64,000 nucleotides of DNA. It comes from a virus (Duplodnaviria > Caudoviricetes). How positions within the stretch are numbered: the stretch's first letter is position 1; every line of letters begins with the position of its first letter. Shown one piece after another: positions 22,330 through 41,956 of this stretch. The notes beneath the pieces are model-generated. The model saw nothing but the letters and a program-made list of their open reading frames with translations. It was not told where the DNA came from and did not search any database. Position numbers and translations under genes: made by a program. The stretch spans positions 1 through 64,000 of IMG/VR virus record IMGVR_UViG_3300029288_000090; one strand, given 5' to 3'.

Positions 22330-22971
22330 GTGGTGGATAGAGATACTGTATTTGTTGTTGGTGGAGGCCCTTCCTTATCCTCCTTTAATTTATCTAAACT
22401 TTCTAACTATCATACCATTTGTATTAACCAATCTGTTTTCGACATTCCAAATCCGGATTATCTAATAACTTGTGATTACACTTTTCTTATCAAATTAGGA
22501 AAGGAACGTCTTTCTACTTTATCTTGTACACGTGTTTTTGTTGCTAATTTTATAGGAGAGGCTCTAAAAGAAACGGGAGGAAAGATTATAGATCCACATT
22601 GTAATCTTTTTTATGATTTGTCCTCTTTTGATACGATTATAAAGGCACGAAATAGATCAGGAATAGGAGGAACGTTCAGAGATTTTCGATCAGGGGGCAA
22701 TAGTGGCTACTGTGGGTTTCAATTAGCTGTTCTTCTTGGCTATAAAAAGATAGTTTTTGTTGGAATAGATCTGACAATTGTTGGGCGAAAGACTCATTAT
22801 CATTCAGTATATACAACGGAACTAACTCTGTTTAAAAGAAGGTTGGATACTTACTATGCTGAATTTAAGCATGGGATAGATCAGGTAAAAAGAGACTTCC
22901 CTAATATCAAGATGAGCACAGGAACTCCTGGAAGATTACAAGAGTTACTTCCTCTAGAAAGCCCTATATAA
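22330..22971 (+). CDS. Maf/MptE-like (DUF115-type) glycosyltransferase-fold protein
   Basis: VVGGGPSL, ICIN, NSG...QLAVLLGYKKIVFVGID, THYH. Confidence 0.7.
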   Translation: MVDRDTVFVVGGGPSLSSFNLSKLSNYHTICINQSVFDIPNPDYLITCDYTFLIKLGKERLSTLSCTRVFVANFIGEALKETGGKIIDPHCNLFYDLSSFDTIIKARNRSGIGGTFRDFRSGGNSGYCGFQLAVLLGYKKIVFVGIDLTIVGRKTHYHSVYTTELTLFKRRLDTYYAEFKHGIDQVKRDFPNIKMSTGTPGRLQELLPLESPI

Positions 22972-23029
22972 TACTCGAAAAACACTCTACGTGTCACTGC
23001 AGTGATTTTTAAAGGATAGATTAGAGACT

Positions 23030-23725
23030 TTGATTAAGAAAGATTTAAAACACGTGAAGACGCTTACAGTGATTATTCCAACAAGGGGCCGATTACAGAA
23101 GTTAAAGGAAACGTTAGCTTCAATTCCTACTCTTCCTTACGTTAAAATTTCTGTAATCTGTGATGATGATGCAATAACTAAATATGAATTGGAGAAAATG
23201 AAAAGATCCGATATGTCTGTTCATTGTTCTGGAAAACATAAAGGATCAGTCTGGTGCAGAAATCTTTTAATAGGAAATGAGGAGGATGGAGTTTTGTATG
23301 CAACAGATGATATTATATTTCTTCCTAATTCTATTCAGACAGCTTTTGAAACTTTTAATAGAACTTTTTTAGATGATGATGGAATAGTAGGGTTCCTACA
23401 ACGTCCAGGAACTTTTGATCCTACTGGAGTAGGTTTGGTGGGACAAACGTTTCTAAAACGATTTCCCAATAAAGTTCTGTTTTTTCCTAAATACTACCAT
23501 TTTGCGTCTCAGGAAATAGGAAGATTATGTGAAAGGATTAAAATAGAGGCAAGAAAAGTTGTCTTTGTTCAACATCCTTCCGTGGTTGTTGAACATAAAC
23601 ATCCTGGAATGTTCAAAGAACTTATAGATCAAACACATAGAGATGCAAGGGTATATAAGAATGTAGATCAAAGTTTATCAAAACAAAGAAAACAACAAAA
23701 TCTTGTATGGGGACGAATAGTTTAA
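23030..23725 (+). CDS. GT-A (GT2-like) glycosyltransferase
   Basis: VIIPTRGR...ATDDIIF...VEHKHP. Confidence 0.75.
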   Translation: MIKKDLKHVKTLTVIIPTRGRLQKLKETLASIPTLPYVKISVICDDDAITKYELEKMKRSDMSVHCSGKHKGSVWCRNLLIGNEEDGVLYATDDIIFLPNSIQTAFETFNRTFLDDDGIVGFLQRPGTFDPTGVGLVGQTFLKRFPNKVLFFPKYYHFASQEIGRLCERIKIEARKVVFVQHPSVVVEHKHPGMFKELIDQTHRDARVYKNVDQSLSKQRKQQNLVWGRIV

Positions 23726-23735
23726 GGAGAAACTT

Positions 23736-24719
23736 ATGCACTGTTTGATTACAGGAATTACAGGATTCGTTGGGAGTCATTTGTGTGATTATCTGCTGAC
23801 TCAAGGTGTTCAGATTTATGGATTGTGTAGATGGAGATCTCCTTTGGACAATGTAAGACACTGTCTTGGGAGTTTTACATCTGTTTATGGGGACCTCCTT
23901 GACTTAAGTTCTATGATAGAAGCTATAGATACTATTCGTCCTGATTTTATATTTCATCTGGCAGCTCAATCTTATGTTCCTTACAGTTTTGTAGCTCCAG
24001 GAATAACCGTTCAAACAAACTGTTTGGGAACAACGAATCTATTAGAAGCAATAAGACTTGTCCGTAATAAATGTCTTACATATGATCCTGTTGTTCATAT
24101 TTGCTCCTCTTCGGAAGTATACGGACAAGTTCTTCCAGAGGAAGTTCCAATTGTTGAAACAACACCTTTTCGTCCAGCATCTCCATATGCTGTATCAAAA
24201 GTCTGTGAAGATATGTTGGGTGCACAATATTTTCTCTCTTATGGAATTAAAACAATTCGAACTCGTATGTTTACACATACAGGACCAAGGAGAGGAGATG
24301 TTTTTGTTGAATCAACGTTTGCCAAACAAATTGTTGAAGCAGAATTGAACCTTAGGCGTCCAATTGTTTATGTTGGTAATTTAGATAGTATAAGAACTTT
24401 TGCCGATGTCAGGGATACGGTCAGAGCCTACTGGATGTTAGTCAACACTTGCGTTCCAGGAGAAGTATATAATATAGGAGGAGATTTTACAGAATCTGTT
24501 GGGGATATGTTAAATCGATTGATAAAGTTATCTAATTTGGATGATATAGAAATTCAAGTAGATCAATCCCGTTTACGTCCATCAGATGTAACATTACAAA
24601 TTCCGTCCTCAAATAAGTTCAAAGAAGCTACAGGGTGGAAGCCAGAAATCACTTTTGAACAGACGTTATTAGACTTGCTACACTATTGGAGAGATTGGTA
24701 TGATCGAAATAATGGTTAA
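23736..24719 (+). CDS. gmd: GDP-mannose 4,6-dehydratase
   Basis: ITGITGFVGSHL, HLAAQSYV, SSSEVYG, SPYAVSK, VGNLDSIR, RLRPSDV. Confidence 0.85.
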   Translation: MHCLITGITGFVGSHLCDYLLTQGVQIYGLCRWRSPLDNVRHCLGSFTSVYGDLLDLSSMIEAIDTIRPDFIFHLAAQSYVPYSFVAPGITVQTNCLGTTNLLEAIRLVRNKCLTYDPVVHICSSSEVYGQVLPEEVPIVETTPFRPASPYAVSKVCEDMLGAQYFLSYGIKTIRTRMFTHTGPRRGDVFVESTFAKQIVEAELNLRRPIVYVGNLDSIRTFADVRDTVRAYWMLVNTCVPGEVYNIGGDFTESVGDMLNRLIKLSNLDDIEIQVDQSRLRPSDVTLQIPSSNKFKEATGWKPEITFEQTLLDLLHYWRDWYDRNNG

Positions 24720-25671
24720 ACTGTTTCGGAAAATGTACTTAATCCGTTCTGCTGAAATAGCTATCCGGCAGGAGTATCAGAAAGACGAGATGAAAACTCC
24801 TATGCATATGTCTATGGGAAGTGAGGCTATTTCTGCAGGATTATGTGAGGCACTCGGAAAAAGAGCAGCTGTATTTGGAACTTACCGATCCCATGCTCTA
24901 TACTTGGCAAGAACAGAAGATGTAGATGGATTCTTTGCAGAAATGTATGGGAAAGAAACTGGACCTTCACAAGGAAAAGCAGGGTCTATGCATCTTTGCA
25001 ATCCAAGATTAGGGTTTATGGGAAGTTCAGCAATTGTTGGTGGGATTCTTCCTATAGCTGTTGGATATGCATTTTCTAATCAGTACTTGTCTAGATCTTC
25101 CCCCACAGCAGTTTTATTTGGAGACGGAGCAACAAATGAAGGTACGTTCTGGGAAAGTATTAATCTAGCTTGTGTGAAGAAAGTTCCTATTATATTTGTT
25201 TGTGAAGATAATGGTTTAGCTGTTCATACTAAAAAAGAAACTAGAAACGGATTTACAAATCTTACAGATATTATTACGTTTTTCAAATGTATGTCTTATA
25301 AATATGAGGGAACTAATGTAGAAGTTATATACAACATATTTGAAGAATGTGTTAAGAATCTCCATTTAGGGCCTTGTTTCGTTCATCTTAAGTATTATCG
25401 ATATCTACAACACGTTGGAGTAAACACAGATTTTGATAAGGGATATAGAAACGAATCTGAATTTCACTGCTGGCATAGTATAGATCCGATAAAAATGTGT
25501 GAGAAGCAACTTCTTAACGGTTGTATCTCTACTGAAACAATAGAAGGTATAAAAGAAGAGATAGATCAAAGAGTTAAGGCTGGTATAGAATTTGCTAAGA
25601 ATTCTGATTTTGCTCCAACCCTTTCTATTATAAAAGGTGTATACTATGATGCGTACAATAACGTACTGTGA
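24700..25671 (+). CDS. ThDP-dependent dehydrogenase E1 alpha-like subunit
   Basis: H.S.G.EA, YRSH, GKAGSMH, GDGATNEG...EDN ThDP motif, YRY..HVG. Confidence 0.9.
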   Translation: MIEIMVKLFRKMYLIRSAEIAIRQEYQKDEMKTPMHMSMGSEAISAGLCEALGKRAAVFGTYRSHALYLARTEDVDGFFAEMYGKETGPSQGKAGSMHLCNPRLGFMGSSAIVGGILPIAVGYAFSNQYLSRSSPTAVLFGDGATNEGTFWESINLACVKKVPIIFVCEDNGLAVHTKKETRNGFTNLTDIITFFKCMSYKYEGTNVEVIYNIFEECVKNLHLGPCFVHLKYYRYLQHVGVNTDFDKGYRNESEFHCWHSIDPIKMCEKQLLNGCISTETIEGIKEEIDQRVKAGIEFAKNSDFAPTLSIIKGVYYDAYNNVL

Positions 25672-26692
25672 GGCACTTAAGGAGGCAACTGCTTATATTC
25701 TTGAGAAGCATTCTAACGCTTTTTTGTATGGAATAGGTGTTCCAGATCATACAGAGATTTTTGGTTCCGTTAAAGGAATTTATGAACAGTACGGAGACAG
25801 GAGATGCTTTGATGTTCCTTTGTGTGAGGACACATTGGCAGGATTTGGTTTGGGAGCAGCTCTTGGAGGTCTTACACCTATATTCATAAATATACGTGTG
25901 GATTTTTTACTATTGGCATTAAATCAATTGGCTAATATGATTAGTAGTTATCAATATATGATGAACGGATCTTATCCTCTTCCGTTTGTTATTAGAGCAG
26001 TCATAGGACGTGGATGGGGACAAGGATGTCAGCATAGTAAAAGTTGTCAGTCAATATTTGCTCATATACCTGGACTAAAAGTAGTAATGCCAACTACTCC
26101 TTCTGATGCAAAAGGTTTACTTATTTCTGCATGTGAAGATATGAATCCTGTTGTTTTTATAGAACATCGTTGGTTATATTGGCAAGAAGAAGAAGTTCAA
26201 GAAGGTCCTTTTAGAAGTACTATTGGAGAAGGACGTGTGTTACGAAAAGGGAAGGACGTTACAATTGTTGCAACTTCATGGATGAATGTTGAAACGTTAA
26301 AAGCTGCAGATATCTTACGAAGGAAGGCAGGAGTTGACGTTGAGATAGTTGATCCTAGAACTATTTATCCATTAGATGAGCAAATTATTTACGAATCTGT
26401 TAATAAAACTCATAATTGTATTGTTGCTGATAATGATTGGACGTTCTGTGGATTTTCTTCTGAAGTTGCAGCTTTGGTATCTGATAATTGTTTTCCTAGT
26501 TTAGAAAACCCTGTTAAAAGAGTAGGATTTAAGCATACTCCTTGCCCAACTGCGAGACATTTGGAAAATGAATTTTATCCTAATTCTATTGAAATTATTC
26601 AATGTGTACAGGAACTTTTGGATTTAGGCTCAATAGATTTATTGGATGAAGAATTTTATTCTAATGAAAACCGTTTTAAAGGACCTTTTTAA
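25637..26692 (+). CDS. ThDP-dependent dehydrogenase E1 beta-like subunit
   Basis: DVPLCE, GQGCQHS, PGLKVVMP.TP.DAKGLL, PVVFIEH, GKDVTIVA, D.RTI.PLD. Confidence 0.9.
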   Translation: MYTMMRTITYCEALKEATAYILEKHSNAFLYGIGVPDHTEIFGSVKGIYEQYGDRRCFDVPLCEDTLAGFGLGAALGGLTPIFINIRVDFLLLALNQLANMISSYQYMMNGSYPLPFVIRAVIGRGWGQGCQHSKSCQSIFAHIPGLKVVMPTTPSDAKGLLISACEDMNPVVFIEHRWLYWQEEEVQEGPFRSTIGEGRVLRKGKDVTIVATSWMNVETLKAADILRRKAGVDVEIVDPRTIYPLDEQIIYESVNKTHNCIVADNDWTFCGFSSEVAALVSDNCFPSLENPVKRVGFKHTPCPTARHLENEFYPNSIEIIQCVQELLDLGSIDLLDEEFYSNENRFKGPF

Positions 26693-27066
26693 TGGAAACT
26701 GTAAGAAAAGTATGGGGAGAAGAATATATTATTGTTAATAAAGAGTATTGTGGCAAGATTTTGACACTAAAACAACAGCATAGATGTAGTATACATCACC
26801 ATAAAAATAAGAACGAAACTTTTTTGGTTCTAGAAGGACTTGTTCTTATTGAAAAAAATGGAGAATTGTTTGTCCTTCATCCCTTCCAATCTATAGATAT
26901 TTTGGCAGGGGAAAATCATAGATTTACTGGACTTACAGGAAGCAGAATGATAGAGTTTTCTTCCCATCATGAAGATGACGATAGCTATAGAACATCTTCT
27001 AGTGAGAGAGTTCCTGATTGTGATTTTCATCCTCTTTATAGTAAATATGTGAAAGGTGGAGACTAA
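26692..27066 (+). CDS. Cupin (sugar isomerase-like) protein
   Basis: KVWGEE, CSIHHHKNKNETF, HRF, EFS..H..DDSYR. Confidence 0.75.
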   Translation: METVRKVWGEEYIIVNKEYCGKILTLKQQHRCSIHHHKNKNETFLVLEGLVLIEKNGELFVLHPFQSIDILAGENHRFTGLTGSRMIEFSSHHEDDDSYRTSSSERVPDCDFHPLYSKYVKGGD

Positions 27067-27812
27067 TGTGTTGGCATGATAGAATTGCAGCAGATACAAT
27101 CCTTCAACTGGCTTATGATTTTCATATTGGTACGTTTTTAGAGACAGGAACGTTTAAAGGTGTTAATGCAAAATTCCAATCAAAACGATTTAAACAAGTT
27201 ATTAGTTGTGAGATCAATCCTGAATATTTCAAGATGGCTAAACAAAGAGTCAGTAACTGCCCCAATGTTTATCTTTTTAATATGAGTAGTCCAGAATTTC
27301 TTAAGCTATTTGTTGATCTTTACGAAGCTACTGAAAGAAAAGATTACTTGTTTATTTATCTGGATGCACATTTTTACGATCCAACTTTAGATCCTAAGGA
27401 TCGTTGGGTAGTTTTGAAAGAGTTAGAAGAGTTGGAAGGATTTGAGAATTGTATCATTTGCATTCATGATTTTGATTGTTCGGGGCTTGGGCATTTAACA
27501 TATGATGGAATTCCTTTAGATTTCAATCTAATAGCAGATAGGATTCAGAGAGTTAATCCTGGATTTTATTATTATTGCAATACAAAACAATTTAGTGAAA
27601 TCCATACTGAGCAATCTATTATTGGGATACCAGGTATGAAGAGAGATGAGGATACTTTAAACAATATAGAATTTACACATTCTACAGAAGCAAGAAAATA
27701 TAGGGGGATGATTTACTGTACACCTCAAAAATTGAATTTGTCAAGATATCGTTTAGTCCGTTTTGAACATCCAAGAATTTCCTATCCTCCCGTGGAGTCG
27801 GTATTGTTATGA
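27066..27812 (+). CDS. Class I SAM-dependent methyltransferase-like protein
   Basis: FLETGTFKG, SCEIN, S.EFL, YLDAH, IHD motifs. Confidence 0.7.
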   Translation: MCWHDRIAADTILQLAYDFHIGTFLETGTFKGVNAKFQSKRFKQVISCEINPEYFKMAKQRVSNCPNVYLFNMSSPEFLKLFVDLYEATERKDYLFIYLDAHFYDPTLDPKDRWVVLKELEELEGFENCIICIHDFDCSGLGHLTYDGIPLDFNLIADRIQRVNPGFYYYCNTKQFSEIHTEQSIIGIPGMKRDEDTLNNIEFTHSTEARKYRGMIYCTPQKLNLSRYRLVRFEHPRISYPPVESVLL

Positions 27813-28525
27813 GTATCCCAAAAGTAAGTATTATCGCAACAGCTATCCATACGGAATTCTGGCAAAAGCTCTATGCAGATCTTTCCAGAGATAATCCTAT
27901 TCCCTTTGAGATAGTTTTTGTAGGGAGTAAAAAGCCAGATTTTGCTCTGCCTCCTAATTTCATTTATATCTATTCTGATGCCAAGCCAGTTCAGTGCTTA
28001 GAAACAGCAGCTAGGAATGCCCACGGTGAGTATTGCATGATTACGGCAGATGATGTAGAAGTCCCGCCGAGAATGCTTTATGATATGAACTACTTTTTAA
28101 TTCGAATGTTCAGTGATAAAGCCATTGTCTCGGCGAGATTTGCGGATTCTGCAAATGGGCCTCCTAATGATAAACTTCTTGTTTTGGATACCAGAAATCC
28201 AAGATCTCCCGTCTTGGGAGTTAATACGATGATTAAAAGGAGTGTATGGAAGGAGATAGGAGGATTGGACAAACGTTTCTTTGCCTTCAAAGCAGATTTA
28301 GATCTTCAAATGAGAATATATGCTTCTGGAGGATATTTATTTTTAGTTCCAGATAGTATAGCCAGGGAGAAGCCACGTCCAGGACCAAGATTGGTAGACA
28401 CATTTTCAGCACATGATAGTAAGATTTTGTATGATCTTTGGGTACTTCCTAATGGAGAAACCAGTAAAACTCGAATGGGAGAACTTCATCCTTTTGAAGA
28501 TAATGAGATTCCAATAGTGAGATAA
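27809..28525 (+). CDS. GT-A glycosyltransferase, paralog 1 of 7
   Basis: VSII..AI, FEIVFVG, KP.QC.E.A.R...GEY, ADD, GGLDKRF...D.DL..R. Confidence 0.75.
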   Translation: MSIPKVSIIATAIHTEFWQKLYADLSRDNPIPFEIVFVGSKKPDFALPPNFIYIYSDAKPVQCLETAARNAHGEYCMITADDVEVPPRMLYDMNYFLIRMFSDKAIVSARFADSANGPPNDKLLVLDTRNPRSPVLGVNTMIKRSVWKEIGGLDKRFFAFKADLDLQMRIYASGGYLFLVPDSIAREKPRPGPRLVDTFSAHDSKILYDLWVLPNGETSKTRMGELHPFEDNEIPIVR

Positions 28526-28527
28526 TT

Positions 28528-29250
28528 ATGACAACTCCTTATATTAGTATTATTAGTTCAGCTATTCATACGCAATTTTGGATGGAGATTTATAATCAGT
28601 TTAATTGTTCACTAAATAAAGTTCCGTTTGAACTTGTGTTTGTCGGAAATAAAACTCCTAATTTTCAACTCCCTCCTAATTTTATTTTTATTTATAGTGA
28701 TGCAAAACCAGCCAAATGTTTTGAGATTGCTGCTAGAAATGCTCATGGAGAATATATGATGTTCTTTCAGGACGATCTTATAATTCCTGATAGAGCCTTG
28801 AATTGGATTTGTGCATATATTCCAAGACTTCCAGAACAAAAGAAGTTAGTTCTTACACCACGATTTAGTGATACTCCTAATGGAGAACCAAGAGATAATT
28901 TGTTAAGTTTCTATCCTCCTTATATAGGATCTCCAGTTATAGGAGTGGGAACTATTTTTCATAGACAACTATGGTATGAATTAGGGGGGATAGATAGACG
29001 ATTTAATCTTCTTTTTTCTGACTATGATATGATGTTAAGAATTTATGAGCAGGGAGGAATTCCTTTTATAGTTCCAGAATGTGTGTTGAAAGAACGTTCT
29101 CATGAAGGAAGGAATAGATTGATTAACAACTATAAACCTGATAGAGAACTTTTATATTCATTATGGCTTCTTCCTGATAAAACAGTAAGTAAGAAAAGAC
29201 TGCAATCGTTGCAACCTTATACAAAAGAAGAGATTGTTATAGTGAGATAA
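28528..29250 (+). CDS. GT-A glycosyltransferase, paralog 2 of 7
   Basis: Same motif set, QDD, GGIDRRF; shares LPPNFI.IYSDAKP with paralog 1. Confidence 0.75.
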   Translation: MTTPYISIISSAIHTQFWMEIYNQFNCSLNKVPFELVFVGNKTPNFQLPPNFIFIYSDAKPAKCFEIAARNAHGEYMMFFQDDLIIPDRALNWICAYIPRLPEQKKLVLTPRFSDTPNGEPRDNLLSFYPPYIGSPVIGVGTIFHRQLWYELGGIDRRFNLLFSDYDMMLRIYEQGGIPFIVPECVLKERSHEGRNRLINNYKPDRELLYSLWLLPDKTVSKKRLQSLQPYTKEEIVIVR

Positions 29251-29254
29251 GATT

Positions 29255-29428
29255 ATGGAACTTCTACTACTTATTCTTATTATTGCATTTTGCTTTGGAG
29301 GCAAGGGAGAACAAAGAGCTAGAACGTATATCAAATCTCCACCAAAAACACCACGTCCGGAAAATGTAAACCCGATACCTCATTCTTTTAAAAAGGACAG
29401 CACAAATGGAACTGAATCTAAAAGGTAA
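29255..29428 (+). CDS. Small membrane-anchored Pro-rich peptide, 57 aa (not in ORF track)
   Basis: MELLLLILIIAFCFGG...SPPKTPRPE...; fills the gap and overlaps the next gene. Confidence 0.45.
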   Translation: MELLLLILIIAFCFGGKGEQRARTYIKSPPKTPRPENVNPIPHSFKKDSTNGTESKR

Positions 29429-30179
29429 AACTGCTTTAATTACAGGAGGTACTCACGGGATAGGGAAAGCTATAACCATGAGTTTGGCTTTGGAAGGATG
29501 TAATGTTATATTTGTATCCAGTAATAAAGATAGAGTTGATTTCATGATAGGAGAGATGGAACCTCTTCGTCAGAAGTTGGAGTTTAACTATGCTGGTTTT
29601 TGTCATGATTTAACTCAAGAAAATGAAATTAGAAACTGTTTGAAAAATATATATACTCTTATTCGTGATATCGGAACTATTGATATTTTGATTAATAATG
29701 TTGGAGGAGGAGGAAGACGGGGAGATAGAATGTGGGAAATAACCCAGCAAGATATATGGGAGGAGGTAATGGCGAAAAATCTTTTCGTTTCATCAATGTT
29801 TACAATGCATCTTATTCCTGATATGATTAAGAAGAAGTGGGGAAGAGTAGTTACTATATCTTCAATTTATGGAAAAGAAAGTGGAGGACGTCCATGGTTT
29901 ACAGCAGCAAAATCAGCACAAATAGCCATGATGAAAGAATTATCACGGAACAGGAGGTATGTATCCTCTGGAATTACTTTTAATACGGTTTGTCCAGGAT
30001 ATATAGATATTCGTGATAATCAGAAGATAGAATATTTGGAAGCTATAGATATTCCTGCAACACGCTATGGGGATCCTTTTGAAGTAGCCAACGTAGTTAG
30101 TTTCTTATGTTCAGATAAAGCTTCTTATGTTAATGGAGCTTGTATTACTGTAGATGGGGGTTTAAGTCATAGTTTTTAG
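29406..30179 (+). CDS. Classical-type SDR oxidoreductase (FabG-like fold)
   Basis: TGGTHGIG, DILINNVG, WGRVVTISS, N.VCPG, VDGG; catalytic motif reads FTAAK. Confidence 0.85.
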   Translation: MELNLKGKTALITGGTHGIGKAITMSLALEGCNVIFVSSNKDRVDFMIGEMEPLRQKLEFNYAGFCHDLTQENEIRNCLKNIYTLIRDIGTIDILINNVGGGGRRGDRMWEITQQDIWEEVMAKNLFVSSMFTMHLIPDMIKKKWGRVVTISSIYGKESGGRPWFTAAKSAQIAMMKELSRNRRYVSSGITFNTVCPGYIDIRDNQKIEYLEAIDIPATRYGDPFEVANVVSFLCSDKASYVNGACITVDGGLSHSF

Positions 30180-30194
30180 AATAAGGAGTCAAAA

Positions 30195-31184: not shown

Positions 31185-31194
31185 GAGTCTTAGT

Positions 31195-33731: not shown

Positions 33732-34531
33732 AACCAGTAATTAGTTTATATGTCCCTAGTATAAGACCAGAAAATTGGCCTAAACAACTTGCTTCTTTAA
33801 AGCAAAGTACTGTTCCTTTTGAAGTTATTTATGTAGGGCATGTTCCTCCTATTGAAGGAAAGAACTATCCTCCTGAACTTCAGTATATTCATAGTGCTGT
33901 CAAACCAGCTCAATGTGCCGAGATAGGGTTTAGAGCATGTGAGGGAGAATTTTGTATATTTGCTCAGGATGATGTCATATTTGGACCTAATACATTGGAT
34001 ATTCTCCATGCTGCTTTCTTAAAGCAAGGAACAGACTTGTCTGTTGTATCGTGTATGCCTTACTTAAATGGAAGTCCTCTGGAAACAGCTCGATACCGTT
34101 TTTGGGATGGAGACCGTGGGAGTCCTATGACTCCAATAGGAGGATTATACAAGAGGAGTGTACTGGTAGAATTAGGCGGGATAGATAAGAATTTTGTGTG
34201 CACTGCTTGGGATATTGATCTATGTATGAGATTATTTGAACGTGGAGGATTTGGAGTTTTTTGTGAGGGAACTATTGCGAATGAAGTAGTTCCTCCTAAC
34301 TCCACGAGACTGTGCTCCTATGGAGCAAGAATTGATCGTCCACTTCTTCACACTCTGTGGACTATGACGCACGGAGAATATGCTCATCAAAAGAACATCC
34401 CTATTCATTATTTGAATCCTGGTCGAAAACCCAATGGAGTTATTTGTAAGAATCGCCGACGTCCCTTTGAACCTTTTTCTCCTATTGATCTTTTAGTCAA
34501 GTCTCAAGGTCCTACAGGAAGATGGCAATGA
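33722..34531 (+). CDS. GT-A glycosyltransferase, paralog 5 of 7
   Basis: Homology begins at MAVKPVISLY (33722); QDD; GGIDKNF; ends SQGPTGRWQ. Confidence 0.75.
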   Translation: MAVKPVISLYVPSIRPENWPKQLASLKQSTVPFEVIYVGHVPPIEGKNYPPELQYIHSAVKPAQCAEIGFRACEGEFCIFAQDDVIFGPNTLDILHAAFLKQGTDLSVVSCMPYLNGSPLETARYRFWDGDRGSPMTPIGGLYKRSVLVELGGIDKNFVCTAWDIDLCMRLFERGGFGVFCEGTIANEVVPPNSTRLCSYGARIDRPLLHTLWTMTHGEYAHQKNIPIHYLNPGRKPNGVICKNRRRPFEPFSPIDLLVKSQGPTGRWQ

Positions 34532-35397
34532 AAACACACTCTCGATTCAGGACAAGATGTCGATCTATGCCTACAACTTTTGAAAAGCCTATTATTAGCA
34601 TATATGTTCCTTCCATTCGCCCTTCTTTATGGAAGAGATTATACGATTCGTTACTTCTTAACAGAACACCATTTGAAGTTATTTTTGTAGGCCCTATAAC
34701 TGGAAGGTTTCAACTTCCTAAGAATGTCAGATATATCTGTACATCAGTAAAACCTTCTCAATGTGCAGAAATAGGATTAAGATCCTGTATAGGTCAATAT
34801 TGTATATTTGCTCAAGATGATATTGTTTTCAGTAAAAAAGCTTTAGATATTCTCTATGAAACAGCCAAAGAAAAAGGAGATCAGGTTGTTGTTTCTTGTT
34901 ATCCTTGTGTCAACTATAGAAGATTGCAAGATTCTTATTACAGATTCTTTCCTGTAGATGATAAAGATACAATTCATAAAAAAGATAGTCCTATAGTTCC
35001 TTTGTGTGGCATATATAAAAAATCAGTTTTGATGGAGTTAGGAGGAATAGATAGAAATTTTATTTGCAGTTGTTGGGACATTGATTTAGCTATGAGATTT
35101 TATGAAAAAGGAGGGCAGGCTATATTTCATCCAGATGCTTTGGCTAATGAGATAGTTGTTCCAAAAGAAAAAAGATTAGCTGCAGAAGGAAAGAAAGACA
35201 GAACTTTTCTGGAATCTTTATGGACGATGACACATGAAGAATTCAAACATCCTACTAATGTTGGAATGCCTGTGTTTCATATAGATAACAATATACCTAT
35301 TGGAGTCATAGTCAAGACTAGAAGAAAACCCTTTACTCCTTTTACAGAAGAGAATATTATGACTATTTCTCAAGATCCCAAAGGAAGATGGCAATGA
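34522..35397 (+). CDS. GT-A glycosyltransferase, paralog 6 of 7
   Basis: KPIISIYVPSIRP, QDD, GGIDRNF; ends SQDPKGRWQ. Confidence 0.75.
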   Translation: MAMKTHSRFRTRCRSMPTTFEKPIISIYVPSIRPSLWKRLYDSLLLNRTPFEVIFVGPITGRFQLPKNVRYICTSVKPSQCAEIGLRSCIGQYCIFAQDDIVFSKKALDILYETAKEKGDQVVVSCYPCVNYRRLQDSYYRFFPVDDKDTIHKKDSPIVPLCGIYKKSVLMELGGIDRNFICSCWDIDLAMRFYEKGGQAIFHPDALANEIVVPKEKRLAAEGKKDRTFLESLWTMTHEEFKHPTNVGMPVFHIDNNIPIGVIVKTRRKPFTPFTEENIMTISQDPKGRWQ

Positions 35398-36200
35398 AGC
35401 CAGTGATTAGCATTTATGTTCCTGGAGTAAGGCCTCATTTTTGGTTACAGATGTATGACTCCTTATGTGCTAATGATATTTCTTTTGAACTTATCTTTGT
35501 AGGACATATAGATCCTCCTTATATTCTTCCTAATAATGTTCTTCATCTTCATACACCAGTCAAGCCAGTGCAATGTGCTGAGATAGGGTTTAGATTATGC
35601 CAGGGTGAATACTGTATGTATCTTGCAGATGACATTTTGTTGAATCCACATGCGTTAGATATTCTTTATGAGAAAACAAAGGAGAAAGACGGATCTGCAA
35701 TTTTTTCTTGTACTCCTTATATTAATGGGAGGAGGATTAAAACAGCTTCTTATAGATTCTTTCCTGCTGATGATATTAGTCAGTACAGAGAAGATAGTCC
35801 TATAACTCCTTTAGGAGCTTTATATAAAAAGAAATGGATCCGTGAGCTAGGAGGAATAGATAGAAATTTCGTTTGCACAGCTTGGGATATTGATTTGGCT
35901 ATGAGATTTTATGAACAAGGAGGAATCTGTGAATTTTTAGAAGAGGCGGAAGCTAATGAGATTGTTCCCTCACAATCTGGAAGATTAGCAACGGAGGGAG
36001 AAGGAGATAGACTTACGTTAGAACGATTTTGGACTGTGAGAAGGACCAATATCACTCCGGAAGAAGAAAAAACTACTGTTATGTATGTTGATGAATCTTT
36101 ACCCTTATGTATCCTGAAAAAGAGAACTTGTCCAGTAGAATCCTTTGTAGATGATAATATAGGAACACTTTCCCAGGGTCCCAAGGGAAAATGGGTATAA
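35388..36200 (+). CDS. GT-A glycosyltransferase, paralog 7 of 7
   Basis: KPVISIYVPGVRP, ADD, GGIDRNF; ends SQGPKGKWV. Confidence 0.75.
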   Translation: MAMKPVISIYVPGVRPHFWLQMYDSLCANDISFELIFVGHIDPPYILPNNVLHLHTPVKPVQCAEIGFRLCQGEYCMYLADDILLNPHALDILYEKTKEKDGSAIFSCTPYINGRRIKTASYRFFPADDISQYREDSPITPLGALYKKKWIRELGGIDRNFVCTAWDIDLAMRFYEQGGICEFLEEAEANEIVPSQSGRLATEGEGDRLTLERFWTVRRTNITPEEEKTTVMYVDESLPLCILKKRTCPVESFVDDNIGTLSQGPKGKWV

Positions 36201-36283
36201 ATGACACACTGGGTGTGCTTGTATGTGTTTTGTTTTTAATACGTGTATAAATATTCCCTTAAAACACGTATACGTGAATCCAA

Positions 36284-36361
36284 TATAACTACTTATAATA
36301 CAATAGGTTATATAAAAGATTGAAAAAGGTATTATAACTGCTTATAATACAATAGGTTATA
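36284..36361. repeat. Pair of 29-bp imperfect palindromes (operator-like), locus A
   Basis: TATAACTACTTATAATACAATAGGTTATA (36284-36312) and TATAACTGCTTATAATACAATAGGTTATA (36333-36361). Confidence 0.85.
36320..36348 (+). promoter_or_regulatory. Sigma70-type promoter
   Basis: TTGAAA-17 nt-TATAAT, 16 nt upstream of the radical SAM ATG. Confidence 0.7.
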
Positions 36362-36364
36362 CAT

Positions 36365-37756
36365 ATGAAAATACTTTTTGTAATCAATCAGTTAGATTAT
36401 GCAGATCATATATCTATAGCGTATCTATCTGCAATTGCAAAAAAGAAGGGACATAAGACAGCTCTTTGCATCCTTTCACAACATCCTTTGCTAAATAAGT
36501 TTATAGAGTTTCATCCAGATGTAGTAGCCTATTCTACGGATATAACAGGATTTAATAATATCGTTCTCGCCCATAGGACATTAAAAAGTATTCGTAAGTC
36601 CTTCGTTTCTATTTTAGGAGGGCCACATGCTACTTTTTCTCCTGGAACTTTTCTTGATTCTGGAATGGATGCCTACTGTATAGGAGAAGGAGAAGGTGCC
36701 TTTTCCGATTTTTTGGATGCTGTAGAAAGAGGAGAAGCTATTTATGCAATTCCTAATCTAATAACTTATGGAGGATCCACTCCTGTCAGGTCTTTGATTC
36801 AGGATCTGGACTTATTACCTTTTCCTGATAGAGAGTTGACTATTGCTAATTCTCATTTGAAAGATGTACCCAAAAAGACATTTTATACTACTCGTGGCTG
36901 TCCATTCAGCTGTAGTTATTGTTGTAACAACTATTATAAAGAACTATATAGAGGAAAAGGAAAGATCGTTCGTCGCTTTTCTGTTTCTCGTGTGTTGGAA
37001 GAAATTAGATTTGTTAGAAGTAGATTTAGAACAGATTTCATAAAGTTTGGAGATGATCTTTTTGCATTGAAAGCAGATGATTGGTTGAAAGAATTTGCAG
37101 AAAGATACCCAAGGGAAATAGGAATTCCGTTTAATTGTTATCTTCGTTTTGATCAGGTGGATAAAGAAGTTTTACAACTTCTTCAACAATCAGGATGTTA
37201 TTCTGTTCATCTTTCAGTAGATAGTGCTTCGGAATATGTTAGAGAAAATATTCTTCATCGACAAATGAAGAAGATAGATATTATTTGGACGCTAAGATTG
37301 ATCCGATTTTATGGAATGCATACGTGGGTCAATTTTATGCTAGCCCTTCCTGAATCTACTTTAGAGGACGACCTTACTTCTTTAAGTATATGTCGAAAAG
37401 GAAAAGTTACTTATCCTTCTTTTTGCACTACAGATCCGATGAAGGGAACGGCTCTTCATACGTATTGTATAAATAAAGGATATTTGGATCCATCCTATGA
37501 AGGGGATATGACAAAGCTAAAGGATAAATCTCCTTTAAACTGTTTTAGTAAAAAGGAAAAAGCAATTAGATACAATATAGCTTTGTTAGGATCTGTTGCT
37601 GCAAGAAGCCCAAAATATCTTGATTGGTTGTTTATGTTTCTAATTAAATATATTCCCCCCAATCCAGTTTTTAGATGGATTCAAAAATGGTTCTACAAGT
37701 ACAGTATAACGCATACCATTTTTAAACTTCCGAAAGGCGAAATATGGAAACTGTAA
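36365..37756 (+). CDS. Cobalamin-binding radical SAM protein (class B methyltransferase-like)
   Basis: N-terminal B12-binding domain (YLSA, PDVVAYS, GGPHAT, IGEGE), DLDLLPFPDR, TRGCPFSCSYC CxxxCxxC. Confidence 0.85.
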   Translation: MKILFVINQLDYADHISIAYLSAIAKKKGHKTALCILSQHPLLNKFIEFHPDVVAYSTDITGFNNIVLAHRTLKSIRKSFVSILGGPHATFSPGTFLDSGMDAYCIGEGEGAFSDFLDAVERGEAIYAIPNLITYGGSTPVRSLIQDLDLLPFPDRELTIANSHLKDVPKKTFYTTRGCPFSCSYCCNNYYKELYRGKGKIVRRFSVSRVLEEIRFVRSRFRTDFIKFGDDLFALKADDWLKEFAERYPREIGIPFNCYLRFDQVDKEVLQLLQQSGCYSVHLSVDSASEYVRENILHRQMKKIDIIWTLRLIRFYGMHTWVNFMLALPESTLEDDLTSLSICRKGKVTYPSFCTTDPMKGTALHTYCINKGYLDPSYEGDMTKLKDKSPLNCFSKKEKAIRYNIALLGSVAARSPKYLDWLFMFLIKYIPPNPVFRWIQKWFYKYSITHTIFKLPKGEIWKL

Positions 37757-38298
37757 AACGGTCCAGATTAGTTTCTGTTGAGAAAACTAAACTCCCTAAC
37801 GTTCTTTTATTCAAAAGAGAAGTGTTTGAAGATCATCGTGGTACCTATGAGGAACTATGGAATGAAGAAGTGTATCAAGCAGAAATAGAACGTTTGATCG
37901 GTTTTAAGATGCGATTTATGGAAGACGATATAGCTATTTCCAACAAACATGTCTTAAGGGGACTTCATGGAGATGATAGGACTTGGAAGTTAGTTACTTG
38001 TTTAAAGGGACGGTTTTATATTGTTGTAGCGTGTAACGATTCTAATTCTTCTTATTACACAGATTGGCAGTCTTTTGTTCTTTCGGATAGTAATAAGCAT
38101 CAATTGTTAGTACCTCCTATGCACGGGCATGGATATGTAGTTATGTCAGACGATGCGATATTTCATTACAAACAGTCACATTCTTATCGTGGGATGGTTC
38201 AGCAGTTTACAATTAAGTATGATGATGAACGTTTTGGATTTTGGTGGCCAGTCCAGAATCCTATTTTGTCCCTTAGGGACACGAGAGGCAAAGTATGA
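37744..38298 (+). CDS. rmlC: NDP-4-keto-6-deoxyhexose 3,5-epimerase (RmlC family)
   Basis: FEDHRG, S.KHVLRGLH, KLVTC..G, LLVPP..GHG, YK, WP...PILS.RD. Confidence 0.85.
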   Translation: METVKRSRLVSVEKTKLPNVLLFKREVFEDHRGTYEELWNEEVYQAEIERLIGFKMRFMEDDIAISNKHVLRGLHGDDRTWKLVTCLKGRFYIVVACNDSNSSYYTDWQSFVLSDSNKHQLLVPPMHGHGYVVMSDDAIFHYKQSHSYRGMVQQFTIKYDDERFGFWWPVQNPILSLRDTRGKV

Positions 38299-39284
38299 GT
38301 AATTTCTATCAGGGTAAGAAAGTATTGGTAACAGGAGCATCGGGGTTAACTGGAGCTTATGTTGTACAAACGCTTCTTGCAGAAGGATCTTTTGTTAGAG
38401 CTGTAGAGCATGTTACTCCACTTGTTAATAAAGATAACAGCTCAAGGCTTGAGATTTTTAAAGGTGGTCTATGTAATGTTGACAGTTGTCAACAGGCTGT
38501 TAAGGATATAGAATTTGTATTCCATTGTGCAGCTGTTACTTCTGGGGCTTATGATATTGTTAATACTCCAGCAAAACATATCACTCCTAATCTGATTATG
38601 TGCTCTCGATTGTTAGAATGTGCAGCAGCTGAAGGTATTAAACGATTCTTATTTATGAGCAGTAGTACTGTATATCCCAATAGTACTGCGGCTATGAAAG
38701 AAGACGATGCTTGGACTGGAGATGTTCATCCTTCTTATCAAGCAGTAGGATGGATGAAAAGATATGTTGAGAAGATGTGTGAATTCTATAATGATAGAAC
38801 TCCTATGAAAGTCTGTATCGTACGTCCTGCTAATATTTATGGGCCTGGAGATAAATTTGATCTTAAGACCGCTCATGTTCTACCTGCGTTGATTCATAAA
38901 ATAGTTCGTGGAGACAATCCATTGGAAGTCTGGGGAACAGGATATGATATGAGAGAATTTATTTTTGTTCAAGACTTAGTCAATGGACTTCTTTTGGCCA
39001 TGAAACGATACTGTTGTGGCAAGCCTATAAACCTTGGATCTGGAGAATGTGTATCTATATCAGATTCAGTTAGTGCGATTTGTGATATTTGTGGATATAA
39101 AGGGAAGATTGTTTATAATGCTTCCAAGCCTTCTACTATTCCTATTAGAAGACTGGATTCTTCTTTAGCCAGGGCAGTATTAGGTTTTGCTACCAGTACT
39201 GATTTTAGAGAAGGTCTTTACTATACAATTAGTTGGTTCAAAGAGAATTGTAAGGAGCTGTTAACTAATGAAGCTTCAAAGTAA
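38295..39284 (+). CDS. NAD-dependent nucleotide-sugar epimerase/reductase (second GDP-fucose synthase-like)
   Basis: VTGASGLTG, SSSTVYP, RPANIYGPGDKF, HVLPALI, VWGTG...REF; catalytic motif reads VGWMK. Confidence 0.85.
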   Translation: MSNFYQGKKVLVTGASGLTGAYVVQTLLAEGSFVRAVEHVTPLVNKDNSSRLEIFKGGLCNVDSCQQAVKDIEFVFHCAAVTSGAYDIVNTPAKHITPNLIMCSRLLECAAAEGIKRFLFMSSSTVYPNSTAAMKEDDAWTGDVHPSYQAVGWMKRYVEKMCEFYNDRTPMKVCIVRPANIYGPGDKFDLKTAHVLPALIHKIVRGDNPLEVWGTGYDMREFIFVQDLVNGLLLAMKRYCCGKPINLGSGECVSISDSVSAICDICGYKGKIVYNASKPSTIPIRRLDSSLARAVLGFATSTDFREGLYYTISWFKENCKELLTNEASK

Positions 39285-39693
39285 ATTACGTCGTTGGCTT
39301 CCTCATTTTGCTGAGTTAGTAGATAGACTATCTATTCATCAACTCAAAGAGGTGTTTATTCCTGAGCATAAGAAAAAATATGCTTCGGAGATGAAAGATA
39401 TTATGTATGATTTGGACTTACTGATTCAGGATAAAAAGGTCCCTTTGACTGCAGATATTATCCGTTGCATTGTTGTGATCTCACAGATAAATACTCATAT
39501 CTGGTACAATGAAACTAAAGCTCGTAAAGGAGATACCCAGGATATTAAACTTCTTCAGTTGACTCATGGATTGAATGGGATCAGAAATAACGCCCAAAAC
39601 CGACTTTTGGAATTGGTAGGACAATTAGAAAGAAAGGATTATAAAACTGATTGCCTGGCAGCTGAGTTTAAAGACTGGGAGATCAGCCTATGA
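39268..39693 (+). CDS. Helical hypothetical protein of the glycan cluster
   Basis: ELVDRLSI..LK...N..IW..E...R...N..RN pattern; overlaps both neighbours. Confidence 0.55.
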   Translation: MKLQSKLRRWLPHFAELVDRLSIHQLKEVFIPEHKKKYASEMKDIMYDLDLLIQDKKVPLTADIIRCIVVISQINTHIWYNETKARKGDTQDIKLLQLTHGLNGIRNNAQNRLLELVGQLERKDYKTDCLAAEFKDWEISL

Positions 39694-40445
39694 AATTCTC
39701 TCTTCTTGTTTCATCCCGGGGACGTCCAGAGATGCTTCTCCAAATGTGGAGAACAGCGAATGAACATCGTTTTAAGCTTCCACTTCATGAAGGAGATTCC
39801 TTTCTTTCGCCTAAATGTAAACATCCTATTGAGCTTGTTTTATACGTAGATGAGGATGATAAAGATACATTAAATTGTTATTATAGTAAAATAGTAGCTT
39901 TAAATACTACTTTAATTATAGGAAAACGTCCAAGAATTTTAGGGGAAACAACAAACAGATGTGCCAAGGAATCTACTGGAGAAATCTGTATGTTGTGTAC
40001 AGACGATGTTATTTTTCATACGGAAGGATGGGATGAATTAGTTGTTGAACAATTCTTAAATTATAAAGATCGAATAGTTCTTGTTTATGGCGAAGATGGA
40101 ATTCAGCATGGACGAACAGCTACACTTCCTTTTCTTCATATCAATTGGATAAATACTATAGGACGTTTTCTTCCTACCTATTTCATCAGTGAGGTTGGAG
40201 ATAGATGGTTAACTGAAGTTGCTACAAAAATAGGAAGATTATGTTATCTTCCTAATTTATATATTCAACACTTACATCCAGTCCATGGAACTATGCCTTA
40301 TGATTCAACGTATACAGAAAGAAGGTCTATGAGAGCAAAGGAAGGGTCTTCAGCACAGTGGTCTACTCTTTATAATATGTATAATAATGTAAGGCAAGAA
40401 GAGGCAAACAAACTTCTTAATTATATCAATGAATATAAAGGATAA
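39690..40445 (+). CDS. GT-A (GT2-like) glycosyltransferase
   Basis: SLLVSSRGRP, YVDEDD, CTDDVIFHTEGWD, D.WL.EVA..IGR, HLHP. Confidence 0.8.
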   Translation: MKFSLLVSSRGRPEMLLQMWRTANEHRFKLPLHEGDSFLSPKCKHPIELVLYVDEDDKDTLNCYYSKIVALNTTLIIGKRPRILGETTNRCAKESTGEICMLCTDDVIFHTEGWDELVVEQFLNYKDRIVLVYGEDGIQHGRTATLPFLHINWINTIGRFLPTYFISEVGDRWLTEVATKIGRLCYLPNLYIQHLHPVHGTMPYDSTYTERRSMRAKEGSSAQWSTLYNMYNNVRQEEANKLLNYINEYKG

Positions 40446-40447
40446 TT

Positions 40448-41887
40448 ATGGGATACGTTGTTACGCATGCTCGACGAAACCGTGCAGTAGTTCATCGTAA
40501 AAATAGATTGATTACAACTCCTTCTCCTATGAATAATAAAAGTAGAGACATCAGTGAACTTTATAGTCCTAAGATATGGGAAGGAAAGAGATGTTTTCTA
40601 CTTGCAGGGGGAGATAGTTTAAAAAATTTTAATTACTCTTGTTTAGCAGGGGAACTCACTGTAGGTGTTAATAGAACTTTTGAAACGTTTGAACCTACAG
40701 TCAACTATTCTATGGATGTCAGTTTTTGGAATTGGCTTCATGGTTATAAAGCTAGTGAAGAGGAAGGACGAATTCGTCTCCAGAAGTGGCGGGAATATAG
40801 TGGCATAAAACTTTTTCTTGAAAATCCTGGAAAAGATTTTGGAGTTGGAACGTTTTTTATTAAACGTTTATCTGAAAGAGCTTTGAGTTTAAGTATTAAA
40901 AGAGGAATTTATGGAGGAACGAATTCTGGTTTTGGTGCTCTTTCTTTCATCATAGCTATGGGATGTAAGTTAATTTATCTTCTTGGACTGGATCTTAAAG
41001 TCAATGGAACATCTACACACTGGCATGATGGGTATCCTGGCCAGACCGTTGAGAGGACATCCAGAGTCTTGACTAACTTTCAGAAAGTATTTACTGAATT
41101 TGCTCCTTCTATACAAAGATTAGGAGTCACAGTTGTTAATTTGAATCCTGGATCTGCATTGGATTGTTTTTCCAAAGCGGATCCGTCTTCTATCCTATCT
41201 TGTGCTCATACAGTAGTTCCTTCTTCATCAGGATATGCAGAGATGAGTAAAGTTACAGGATTGTATCCTTCTTCTTTTCCTATTATTACTTCTTTCTATA
41301 CAAAGAATTCTGGTTATGAACTAGAGGCCAAGAAGTTAGCCAGATCATTGAAGGATATGAACCTGGATTACGAGATAGTAGGAATAGTAGATAGAAAAAA
41401 CTGGCAACTAAATATTCGGTACAAACCTGTACTGATTAAAAAGATGTTGGAAAGATACTATCCACGTCCAGTTTTATATGTAGATGCGGATGCTATCTTT
41501 CTTAAATTTCCAGAACTTTTGCGGACGTTAGATGCTGATGTTGCTATTCATACTGTAAAATGGAGTGTATACGGAAGAGATCGGGCGGACGAAATGTTAG
41601 GTGGAACTGTCTATTTTAAGAATACTCCCACAGCAAAAGGAATTTTAGATAAATGGGTTCAATTATGTGAGACAACTCCTTTATCAGTTTGGGATCAAAA
41701 AATACTTCAAGGTATTTTAGGAAATAACTATTATAATCTTCCTCCAGAATATTGTACTATTTTTGATAGTATGGGATCGGTGGTCAAGGAGCCAGTTATA
41801 TTGCATACCCAAGCCAGTAGAAGACTAAAGCAATCTGGAAGACATTTACATACAATTACAAGACCTTCCAGGAGGAGAAAAAATTAA
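40448..41887 (+). CDS. Bifunctional protein: Maf/MptE-like domain fused to a nucleotide-diphospho-sugar transferase domain
   Basis: N: LLAGGDSL, VGVN, TNSG...AMGCK.IYLLGLD, THWH; C: YKP..I, LYVDADA DxD, WDQ..LQ, LPPEYC.IFD, HTQASR. Confidence 0.8.
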   Translation: MGYVVTHARRNRAVVHRKNRLITTPSPMNNKSRDISELYSPKIWEGKRCFLLAGGDSLKNFNYSCLAGELTVGVNRTFETFEPTVNYSMDVSFWNWLHGYKASEEEGRIRLQKWREYSGIKLFLENPGKDFGVGTFFIKRLSERALSLSIKRGIYGGTNSGFGALSFIIAMGCKLIYLLGLDLKVNGTSTHWHDGYPGQTVERTSRVLTNFQKVFTEFAPSIQRLGVTVVNLNPGSALDCFSKADPSSILSCAHTVVPSSSGYAEMSKVTGLYPSSFPIITSFYTKNSGYELEAKKLARSLKDMNLDYEIVGIVDRKNWQLNIRYKPVLIKKMLERYYPRPVLYVDADAIFLKFPELLRTLDADVAIHTVKWSVYGRDRADEMLGGTVYFKNTPTAKGILDKWVQLCETTPLSVWDQKILQGILGNNYYNLPPEYCTIFDSMGSVVKEPVILHTQASRRLKQSGRHLHTITRPSRRRKN

Positions 41888-41906
41888 AACATCTCCACCC
41901 TGATGG

Positions 41907-41953
41907 CCCGAGAGAGGTCGTTGCAACCATCCTGCACACCCTCTCGGGTTTTT
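41907..41953 (+). terminator. Intrinsic terminator ending the late/glycan arm
   Basis: CCCGAGAG...CTCTCGGG stem followed by TTTTT. Confidence 0.65.
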
Positions 41954-41956
41954 AAC

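Follow-up and report, generated by a model that had tools for sequence, protein, structure and literature searches.

The DNA analyzed here, called the window, is the first 64 kb (64,000 nucleotides) of a complete 126,556-bp IMG/VR phage record (IMGVR_UViG_3300029288_000090, also G000) from an uncultured phage. Positions 22330-41887 hold an island of ~19.5 kb composed of 23 open reading frames (ORFs), all on the plus strand and most overlapping or abutting. The only gaps are 58 nt (22971-23030), ~155 nt (29250-29406), and 164 nt (36200-36365). The island is made up of glycosyltransferases (GTs) and sugar-nucleotide and sugar-modifying enzymes. The leading explanation, a cytoplasmic glycan factory that decorates virion proteins, is in our judgment about as likely as not. 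Its features are given below in window coordinates.

22330-22971, plus strand: g1, stand-alone Maf-like ("sialyltransferase"-type) GT domain (phrog_4603, E 1.1e-14)
23030-23725, plus strand: g2, probable GT-A glycosyltransferase, weakly supported (GT64, E 2.7e-4, just under the cut-off; weak phrog_14945 match)
23736-24719, plus strand: Gmd (Pfam, NCBIfam)
24700-25671, plus strand: E1alpha (Pfam, NCBIfam; PDB pyruvate dehydrogenase E1alpha, E 1e-30)
25637-26692, plus strand: E1beta (Pfam, NCBIfam)
26692-27066, plus strand: cupin (Pfam, NCBIfam)
27066-27812, plus strand: g7, tentatively a probable class I S-adenosylmethionine (SAM) methyltransferase-like protein, by predicted-structure likeness only
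27809-29250, plus strand: g8 and g9, GT-A paralogues of type A (46% mutual identity)
29406-30179, plus strand: classical short-chain dehydrogenase/reductase (SDR)
30195-31184, plus strand: FkbM methyltransferase
31195-32208, plus strand: extended SDR, like GDP-fucose synthase
32153-36200, plus strand: g13-g17, tandem array of five GT-A paralogues of type B (37-51% mutual identity)
36284-36361, in the 164-nt gap: two copies of a 29-bp palindrome, TATAAC-N17-GTTATA
36320-36348, plus strand: sigma70-like promoter-like site, TTGAAA-17-TATAAT (best match in the region, 11 of 12 positions)
36365-37756, plus strand: B12-binding radical SAM enzyme
37744-38298, plus strand: RmlC-type 3,5-epimerase
38295-39284, plus strand: extended SDR, like GDP-fucose synthase
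39268-39693, plus strand: g21, small virus-specific protein (weak DUF4254 match only)
39690-40445, plus strand: g22, phage-type GT (phrog_14945, E 2.3e-30)
40448-41887, plus strand: g23, two-domain GT with a Maf-like N-terminal half and an A064R-D1-like, retaining-type GT-A C-terminal half
41906-41954, plus strand: intrinsic terminator closing the late arm (hairpin 41906-41949, then UUUUU; dG -28.3 kcal/mol, z -5.76)

Eleven genes with 12 domains are GTs: g1, g2, g8, g9, g13-g17, g22, and the two-domain g23. Family searches and paralogue comparison give the same count as the first-pass annotation of this DNA. The seven GT-A paralogues (g8, g9, and g13-g17) share 27-51% mutual identity, and the alignment for g13-g17 has an invariant DD pair and a D..D motif. 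In the family tree, g8 and g9 form their own clade with orthologues in sibling phages, and the clade of g13-g17 has an SH-aLRT support of 100. The AlphaFold model of g16 (predicted local distance difference test score, pLDDT, 89) is an ordinary GT2-type GT-A fold. The GT-A fold search returned generic GT2-type matches only (ppGalNAc-T, TarP, WrtF, and SpsA), which are uninformative on the acceptor.

The Maf-like domains are found in g1 and in the N-terminal half of g23, which are 25% identical. Against PF01973, g1 scores 28.1 bits, under the gathering cut-off of 34.6, and it matches a Maf-domain hidden Markov model (HMM) built in this analysis at E 4e-25. The N-terminal half of g23 matches phrog_4603 (E 1e-24), and the C-terminal half is a Nucleotid_trans GT-A domain. 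No match of g23 to PF01973 was observed at E 0.01 or below, yet many g23 homologues carry a precomputed match to this family. In the g23 model (pLDDT 87), residues 28-251 align with the Maf flagellin GT 5mu5 (Z 16.1, root-mean-square deviation (rmsd) 3.4, 192 residues aligned). Residues 274-462 align with domain 1 of PBCV-1 A064R (2p73; Z 17.9, rmsd 2.7, 180 of 207 residues aligned), and the next-best folds for this half are glycogenin, GT6 enzymes, and the Skp1 galactosyltransferase. Its DxD residues, D346 and D348, are invariant in 40 homologues. At 9-16% identity, these fold matches indicate the kind of enzyme, not the acceptor; the modeled halves of g23 resemble enzymes acting on protein-bound glycans in the cytoplasm. 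Homologues of g22 are encoded by the Pelagibacter phage HTVC008M, Streptomyces phages, and Arthrobacter phages.

The sugar genes were first listed as Gmd, E1alpha/beta, three SDRs, RmlC, a cupin, and three methyltransferases. All of these stand, with an FkbM enzyme and a B12 radical SAM enzyme among them, except that the third methyltransferase is tentative because g7 was assigned by predicted-structure likeness alone (TM 0.70). This protein has no Pfam, PHROG, or NCBIfam match and is similar in the Atlas to class I and FkbM methyltransferases (TM 0.62-0.70). Judging from its family, the B12 radical SAM enzyme is probably a C-methylase. The E1 pair has precedents as a two-carbon carboligase in Plm8/Plm9 (paulomycose) and AviB1/B2 (PMC4802897). 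The Atlas neighbors of g21 are viral clusters, some with DUF6165, and its orthologues in sibling phages are 65-70% identical.

All island proteins look soluble, as had been claimed for the GTs. The highest 19-residue hydropathy is 1.9, and no convincing membrane segment was seen in any of the 23. The first-pass annotation had also reported that the window lacks a flippase, Wzy/Wzz, an exporter, a polyprenyl-phosphate transferase, and a sugar-1-phosphate nucleotidyltransferase; the flippase, exporter, polyprenyl-phosphate transferase, and nucleotidyltransferase are missing from the complete 126,556-bp genome as well. None of its 177 ORFs encodes a polytopic membrane protein as large as a flippase, Wzy, or a transferase would be. 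The families NTP_transferase, ABC2_membrane, Bac_transf, and Glycos_transf_4 have no member in G000 or in its sibling phage G001, and neither do the NeuB family and Flagellin_N. Across five viral records, there is no ABC2_membrane (Wzm-type) gene and no initiating polyprenyl-phosphate transferase (PF00953, PF02397; WecA/WbaP type). Exporter and initiating-transferase genes are likewise absent from nine further viral loci.

Gtr-type seroconversion, which uses GtrA, GtrB, and a polytopic transferase, was rejected because the genome encodes no such membrane proteins and the island is soluble. Since Gmd is present and the genome has no nucleotidyltransferase, the pathway must draw on host GDP-mannose. 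This, together with the solubility of the proteins, supports the earlier proposal of a cytoplasmic pathway that uses host nucleoside diphosphate (NDP) sugars.

The island is the end of a long structural arm. This arm is nearly gap-free and runs from the portal through the capsid, sheath, and baseplate genes to the island. Its landmarks are as follows.

101 kb of the genome, plus strand: portal gene, T4-type, at the start of the long structural arm
within the arm between portal and capsid, plus strand: prohead-protease-like gene
118582-120054 of the genome, plus strand: capsid gene, gp23-type, after which the arm crosses the origin of the record
7419-9050, plus strand: tail sheath
16385-18181, plus strand: baseplate J-like gene (Baseplate_J and gp6-like matches)
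18185-18679, 18680-19990, and 20003-21142, plus strand: baseplate and presumed fiber genes (weak Tail_P2_I and phrog tail protein matches in the region)
21146-22306, plus strand: last gene before the island, variable, with no family or structure match

The junction between the end of the preceding gene (22306) and the island is 23 nt long and holds no terminator-like site. The gene after the island terminator is on the minus strand and belongs to a convergent arm. The ORF layout and the hairpin thus agree with the first description of 23 co-oriented genes that start 23 nt past the last tail-region gene and end at a terminator. The naming of gene 21146-22306 as tail-associated holds in part. 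It is favored by the high variability of the gene and its position behind the baseplate J-like and tail-protein-like genes, but the gene itself lacks a family or structure match. The last two tail-region proteins match no solved structures and no cultured phages. The replication genes and a separate 7-deazaguanine cluster sit outside the island, elsewhere in the genome.

Two siblings of this phage were found, G001 (124 kb, with a terminal repeat) and G002 (a 56-kb fragment). All three share the gene order of baseplate J, three conserved genes, the variable fiber-region gene or genes, g1, g2, and the rest of the island. A synteny survey had been suggested earlier, and both siblings keep the island after the tail genes; this shared placement and the 23-nt junction confirm that the island is physically continuous with the tail operon. 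Sibling orthologues of the baseplate-region genes have 45-72% protein identity. The last tail-region gene (21146-22306) has a G001 counterpart of only 26% identity, and in G002 something else takes its place. A chimeric host-phage assembly was rejected because GC content is even along the record (0.34-0.37), the record has a 127-bp terminal repeat, and the place of the island is conserved in the two siblings.

Island content varies between the siblings as it does in surface-glycan loci. G000 has seven GT-A copies, G001 has nine, and G002 has eight. The G001 island contains three additional transferases, and that of G002 contains an additional split transketolase, two methyltransferases, and an aldo-keto reductase. 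The GT-A family tree consists of two phage clades with one-to-one orthologues and recent duplicates. The family is rare, with 51 clusters in a 5.8-billion database.

The sugar genes also occur as a block in bacteria, on at least 33 contigs from a dozen phyla. Identity between the bacterial and phage proteins is 51-63% for Gmd, 40-51% for E1alpha, 56-64% for E1beta, 37-61% for the SDRs, and 45-54% for RmlC. For the block from Gmd to the cupin (23736-27066), a range of 47-63% was also obtained. Radical SAM orthologues with 50-59% identity are found in 26 bacterial genomes, and bacterial orthologues of the FkbM methyltransferase/SDR block (29406-32208) are 40-60% identical. Judged by these identities, the sugar cassette is of bacterial origin and most of the island is a bacterial cassette, a point that was missed in the first-pass annotation. 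The GT-A and sugar genes are 35-63% identical to genes adjoining Wzm/Wzt exporters. Such exporters (Pfam ABC2_membrane, ABC_tran, and Wzt_C) adjoin the GT-A family in 6 of about 10 cellular contigs, from Nealsonbacteria, Omnitrophota, and Planctomycetota.

The cassettes of Geobacteraceae have no exporter on the contig. In the cultured Trichlorobacter thiogenes ATCC BAA-34, a cassette of Gmd, SDR, RmlC, and B12 radical SAM genes (G006:C29:110000-150164; L063, L042) is followed by four large soluble tetratricopeptide repeat (TPR)/GT-like proteins, one with OGT-like TPR repeats, and then by a flagellin gene. This flagellin is full-length and aligns end to end with Caulobacter flagellins. From its gene content, the locus is likely an island for flagellin glycosylation with a rare sugar. 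It suggests that cells, too, use the sugar on a protein made in the cytoplasm. With cassettes linked to exporters and to flagellin, cells therefore put the sugar on exported polymers and, probably, on cytoplasmically glycosylated protein. T. thiogenes is a cultured bacterium in which the sugar could be identified.

The viral and cellular versions of the cassette differ in their companions, which were counted in windows of +/-10 kb and in related contigs. With HMMs of the g23 halves, Maf-like domains were found on 8 of 11 viral contigs vs none of 33 cellular contigs, and a ninth viral contig has a GT29-like gene. The three siblings are one lineage, so the independent cases number about 5-6 of 8. 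A064R-like domains are present on five viral contigs and no cellular contig. The reverse is observed with the Wzm/Wzt HMMs, which match cellular loci only and no viral contig. Cells have 1-3 GT-A copies, compared with 7-9 in the sibling phages. A genomic rule follows these counts: the cassette is accompanied by Wzm/Wzt or flagellin in cells and by Maf/A064R-type transferases in phages.

Six to eight further, unrelated viral contigs (40-548 kb) combine the GT-A family with Gmd, SDRs, RmlC, thiamine diphosphate (ThDP) enzymes, and B12 radical SAM genes; no membrane proteins were found in them. Maf-like, g2-like, and g22-like genes are clustered on L033 and L036, both unrelated viral contigs, and this suggests a phage-specific transferase core. 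Searches of the island DNA against 50,697 phage records gave no match, and neither did the GT-A query against cultured phages. When IMG/VR was scanned with single proteins, neither the last tail gene nor one GT-A gene gave a match, and relatives were reached by alignments only. A broad GT-A alignment was too diverse for a genome scan, and a narrower one worked. Maf-like genes are also found inside the virion modules of cultured phages. Gp10 of Pseudomonas phage PAJU2 is flanked by the head-closure and tail-terminator genes and accompanied by a methyltransferase. Gp126 of Caulobacter phage CcrColossus comes directly past a tail protein, with two further transferases and a methyltransferase behind it. 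A different sugar island is present in L008 (IMGVR_UViG_3300005573_001166, 159 kb), with Gmd, a YerE-like ThDP flavoenzyme-type protein, a GmhA/GmhB-like fusion, GT9 heptosyltransferase-like genes, and a PAS/GAF protein; the same record contains NTP_transferase.

A pathway can be proposed from these gene families. Gmd would convert host GDP-mannose to GDP-4-keto-6-deoxymannose. The RmlC-type epimerase, three SDRs, E1 pair, radical SAM enzyme, FkbM methyltransferase, and g7 would then produce one or more rare 6-deoxy sugars, with the E1 pair attaching a pyruvate-derived two-carbon branch in the manner of Plm8/Plm9 in the paulomycose pathway. The Maf-like g1 and g23 N-terminal half, g2, g22, and the A064R-like g23 C-terminal half may initiate the chain on a protein acceptor and cap it. 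The seven GT-A paralogues would lengthen it to a non-repetitive oligosaccharide of perhaps 10 residues. Layout suggests that transcription continues from the tail operon into these genes, and the enzymes would therefore appear when the virion proteins do. As to origin, the simplest account is that a bacterial sugar cassette was captured, with the export parts lost or never taken. The phage-type transferases would steer the product to a target found in phages and not in cells, which suggests the particle.

A fuller version of virion decoration is tentative. In it, a lineage of large uncultured myoviruses captured the cassette, dropped the exporter, added Maf/A064R transferases, and expanded the GT-A family to 7-9 copies, and it builds a long, non-repetitive, C-branched, and methylated virion oligosaccharide.

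Virion decoration is favored by the conserved place of the island behind the tail genes, the lack of export and lipid-carrier genes, the Maf/A064R-type genes specific to the viral versions, the fold matches of g23, the Maf-like genes in virion modules of cultured phages, the exporter-free locus of T. thiogenes, and the known glycans of mycobacteriophages, chloroviruses, and mimiviruses. Several observations weigh against it. The cellular GT-A family sits with Wzm/Wzt exporters, and its native acceptor there is therefore probably lipid-linked. The Maf-like domains fall under the Pfam cut-off and have no nonulosonic-acid pathway beside them. A064R-D1 lengthens a glycan that is already in place and does not act on the protein itself (PMC9614988). 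Relatives of g22 in Streptomyces phages sit among replication genes. The structural proteins contain no mucin-like Ser/Thr tract, with a maximum of 47% Ser/Thr per 30-residue window. Finally, a separate sigma70-like promoter serves the last six island genes, and its operator recurs in non-structural arms.

The main rival is host surface remodeling, which we regard as unlikely. An undecaprenyl-linked polysaccharide would be built on a host primer and displayed by the host Wzm/Wzt and ligase, and it may block superinfection or keep progeny from adhering to debris. The similarity of the GT-A and sugar genes to genes beside Wzm/Wzt (Wzt_C) in Nealsonbacteria, Omnitrophota, and Planctomycetota fits this explanation, and the methyltransferases could make a terminal cap recognized by such exporters. 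Recognition of a terminal cap by the exporter is established for ABC-transporter-dependent O-antigens. Remodeling is also the authors' reading of the large GT sets of cyanomyoviruses (PMC12801897). However, an exporter or initiating transferase was found on none of the 11 viral contigs, and genes placed last in a late operon would be followed by lysis with little time to alter the surface. Only the viral versions have gained Maf- and A064R-type genes, and their GT-A copies are inflated relative to cells. The Maf fold of g1 and g23 and the flagellin gene beside the Geobacteraceae cassette would also suit another protein acceptor, i.e., host flagellin, pilin, other host proteins, or non-virion phage proteins. 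This is improbable: neither G000 nor G001 has a flagellin gene, decorating host flagella late would be of little gain to a lytic phage, and the position after the tail genes is conserved.

Hypermodification of DNA, with the sugars placed on phage DNA bases, is very improbable. The 7-deazaguanine cluster at 68-73 kb of the genome does have its own GT1 and a radical SAM/SPASM enzyme, a relative of which is found inside the glycan loci of L013 and L033, and the placement of g22 relatives in Streptomyces phages points the same way. Yet the island is in the structural arm, at least 25 kb from the replication and base-modification genes, and 11 transferases with C-branched sugars far exceed known DNA glycans. 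The bacterial cassette sits with exporters or flagellin, and no gene of the ThyA/dCMP-hydroxymethylase (Thymidylat_synt) family was found in a search that left TET/5mYOX routes outside. Least probable is a soluble glycoside or oligosaccharide that is free of any macromolecule. Sets of E1alpha/beta, B12 radical SAM, and methyltransferase genes are typical of antibiotic deoxysugar pathways (PMC4802897), but there is no aglycone pathway, and synteny with the tail genes would be left unexplained. We know of no such phage product.

Virion decoration has counterparts in several known systems. Mycobacteriophages Che8, Corndog, and Myrna have glycosylated capsid and tail-tube proteins (Freeman et al. 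2023, PMC10527164, as related in PMC12619734). In that account, soluble cytoplasmic GTs are encoded in or beside the structural genes, a likeness to the present island by layout and not by sequence comparison. The cassettes it describes have 1-4 GTs and use host sugars, in contrast to the 11 GT genes and the putative 12-gene rare-sugar pathway here. The capsid glycan machinery of chlorovirus PBCV-1 includes A064R, A111/114R, and A075L (PMC9614988, PMC7826918). It is similar in that multiple virus-encoded GTs assemble a methylated oligosaccharide of ~9-10 sugars on the capsid protein in the cytoplasm, and the fold of A064R-D1 recurs in the C-terminal half of g23 (Z 17.9). PBCV-1 differs in being a eukaryotic virus with scattered glycogenes, and the identity to this half of g23 is just 12%. 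The fibril clusters of mimivirus and Megavirus are contiguous and clade-variable and comprise 9-33 genes, with bacterial-type rare-sugar pathways and many GTs that serve to decorate the virion (PMC9614988). These giant viruses infect eukaryotes, produce viosamine, bacillosamine, and rhamnose, and have individual gene promoters (PMC9614988).

The Maf flagellin systems, e.g., Magnetospirillum Maf (5mu5) and Caulobacter FlmG (PMC7591256), perform exporter-free cytoplasmic O-glycosylation of a self-assembling protein. They, too, have soluble transferases and sugar-modifying enzymes, and g1 and the N-terminal half of g23 share the Maf fold. The phage Maf-like domains differ in being short (~200-220 residues) and in having no flanking Maf domains, nonulosonic-acid pathway, or flagellin. 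Wzm/Wzt polysaccharide loci share the homologous GT-A family, sugar genes, methyltransferases, and cytoplasmic-side assembly, but the phage genome is without Wzm, Wzt, and the initiating polyprenyl-phosphate transferase. The cyanomyoviruses S-SCSM2R, S-SCSM1, and P-SSM2 are large myoviruses with 13 GTs, NDP-sugar enzymes, and an unknown target (PMC12801897). They contain KdsA/B and PgaA-type genes and, as described, no single block after the tail genes (PMC12801897); the GT-A query had no match among cultured phages. The first-pass annotation called the island far larger than known phage cassettes, which was an overstatement: one published cyanomyovirus has 13 GTs and 22 cell-wall-type genes (PMC12801897), and the glyco-clusters of giant viruses have 9-34 genes (PMC9614988).

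If the fuller version of virion decoration is true, no other bacteriophage would have a virion glycan of such complexity, and the system would be the bacterial-virus counterpart of chlorovirus and mimivirus glycosylation. The composition of the glycan would vary from one sibling phage to another, just as that of O-antigens does from strain to strain. To our knowledge, the demonstrated cases of phage-encoded virion glycosylation are so far limited to a few actinobacteriophages, and their glycans are short. A self-contained 19.5-kb factory would be evidence that phages are able to equal giant viruses in glycan complexity. The glycan could have effects on recognition by immune systems and grazers, particle stability, and host range, and the enzymes may be of use for glyco-engineering of proteins in the cytoplasm.

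The palindrome in the 164-nt gap of the island is present in seven copies in the genome, compared with 0.9 expected. All are intergenic, and most are paired beside sigma70-like promoters. The other sites are at 46681-46765 and 57387-57472 of the window and at 100915-100943 of the genome, upstream of the portal gene. By its sequence and placement, the palindrome looks like the operator of a phage regulator, and the last six island genes may be under extra control. The regulatory gap is a recent insert because G001 has no gap at the matching place. The T4-type late promoter motif TATAAATA is not enriched ahead of the island genes. Within the late arm, a GC-rich hairpin and T-run are located directly 3' of the capsid gene (genome 120054-120163) and are likely an attenuator. 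Among the late genes just past the capsid, a Tad3-type anti-Thoeris domain (E 8e-34) is encoded at genome 122593-123381 (L005:4594-5382).

Three observations concern genes outside the island. The radical SAM/SPASM enzyme of the 7-deazaguanine cluster (genome 69971-70873) has relatives of 23-24% identity inside glycan loci, at L013:8483-9226 and L033:18270-19034. The enzyme and the neighboring GT1 may therefore belong to sugar rather than base chemistry. The family A DNA polymerase at genome 75217-78819 (L002:12218-15820) carries a fused uracil-DNA-glycosylase-like domain, and an intein with an HNH endonuclease splits its sequence. On the minus strand of the window (57992-59164), one ORF combines GTP cyclohydrolase I with an N-terminal HNH endonuclease domain and a ROS/MucR-like segment.

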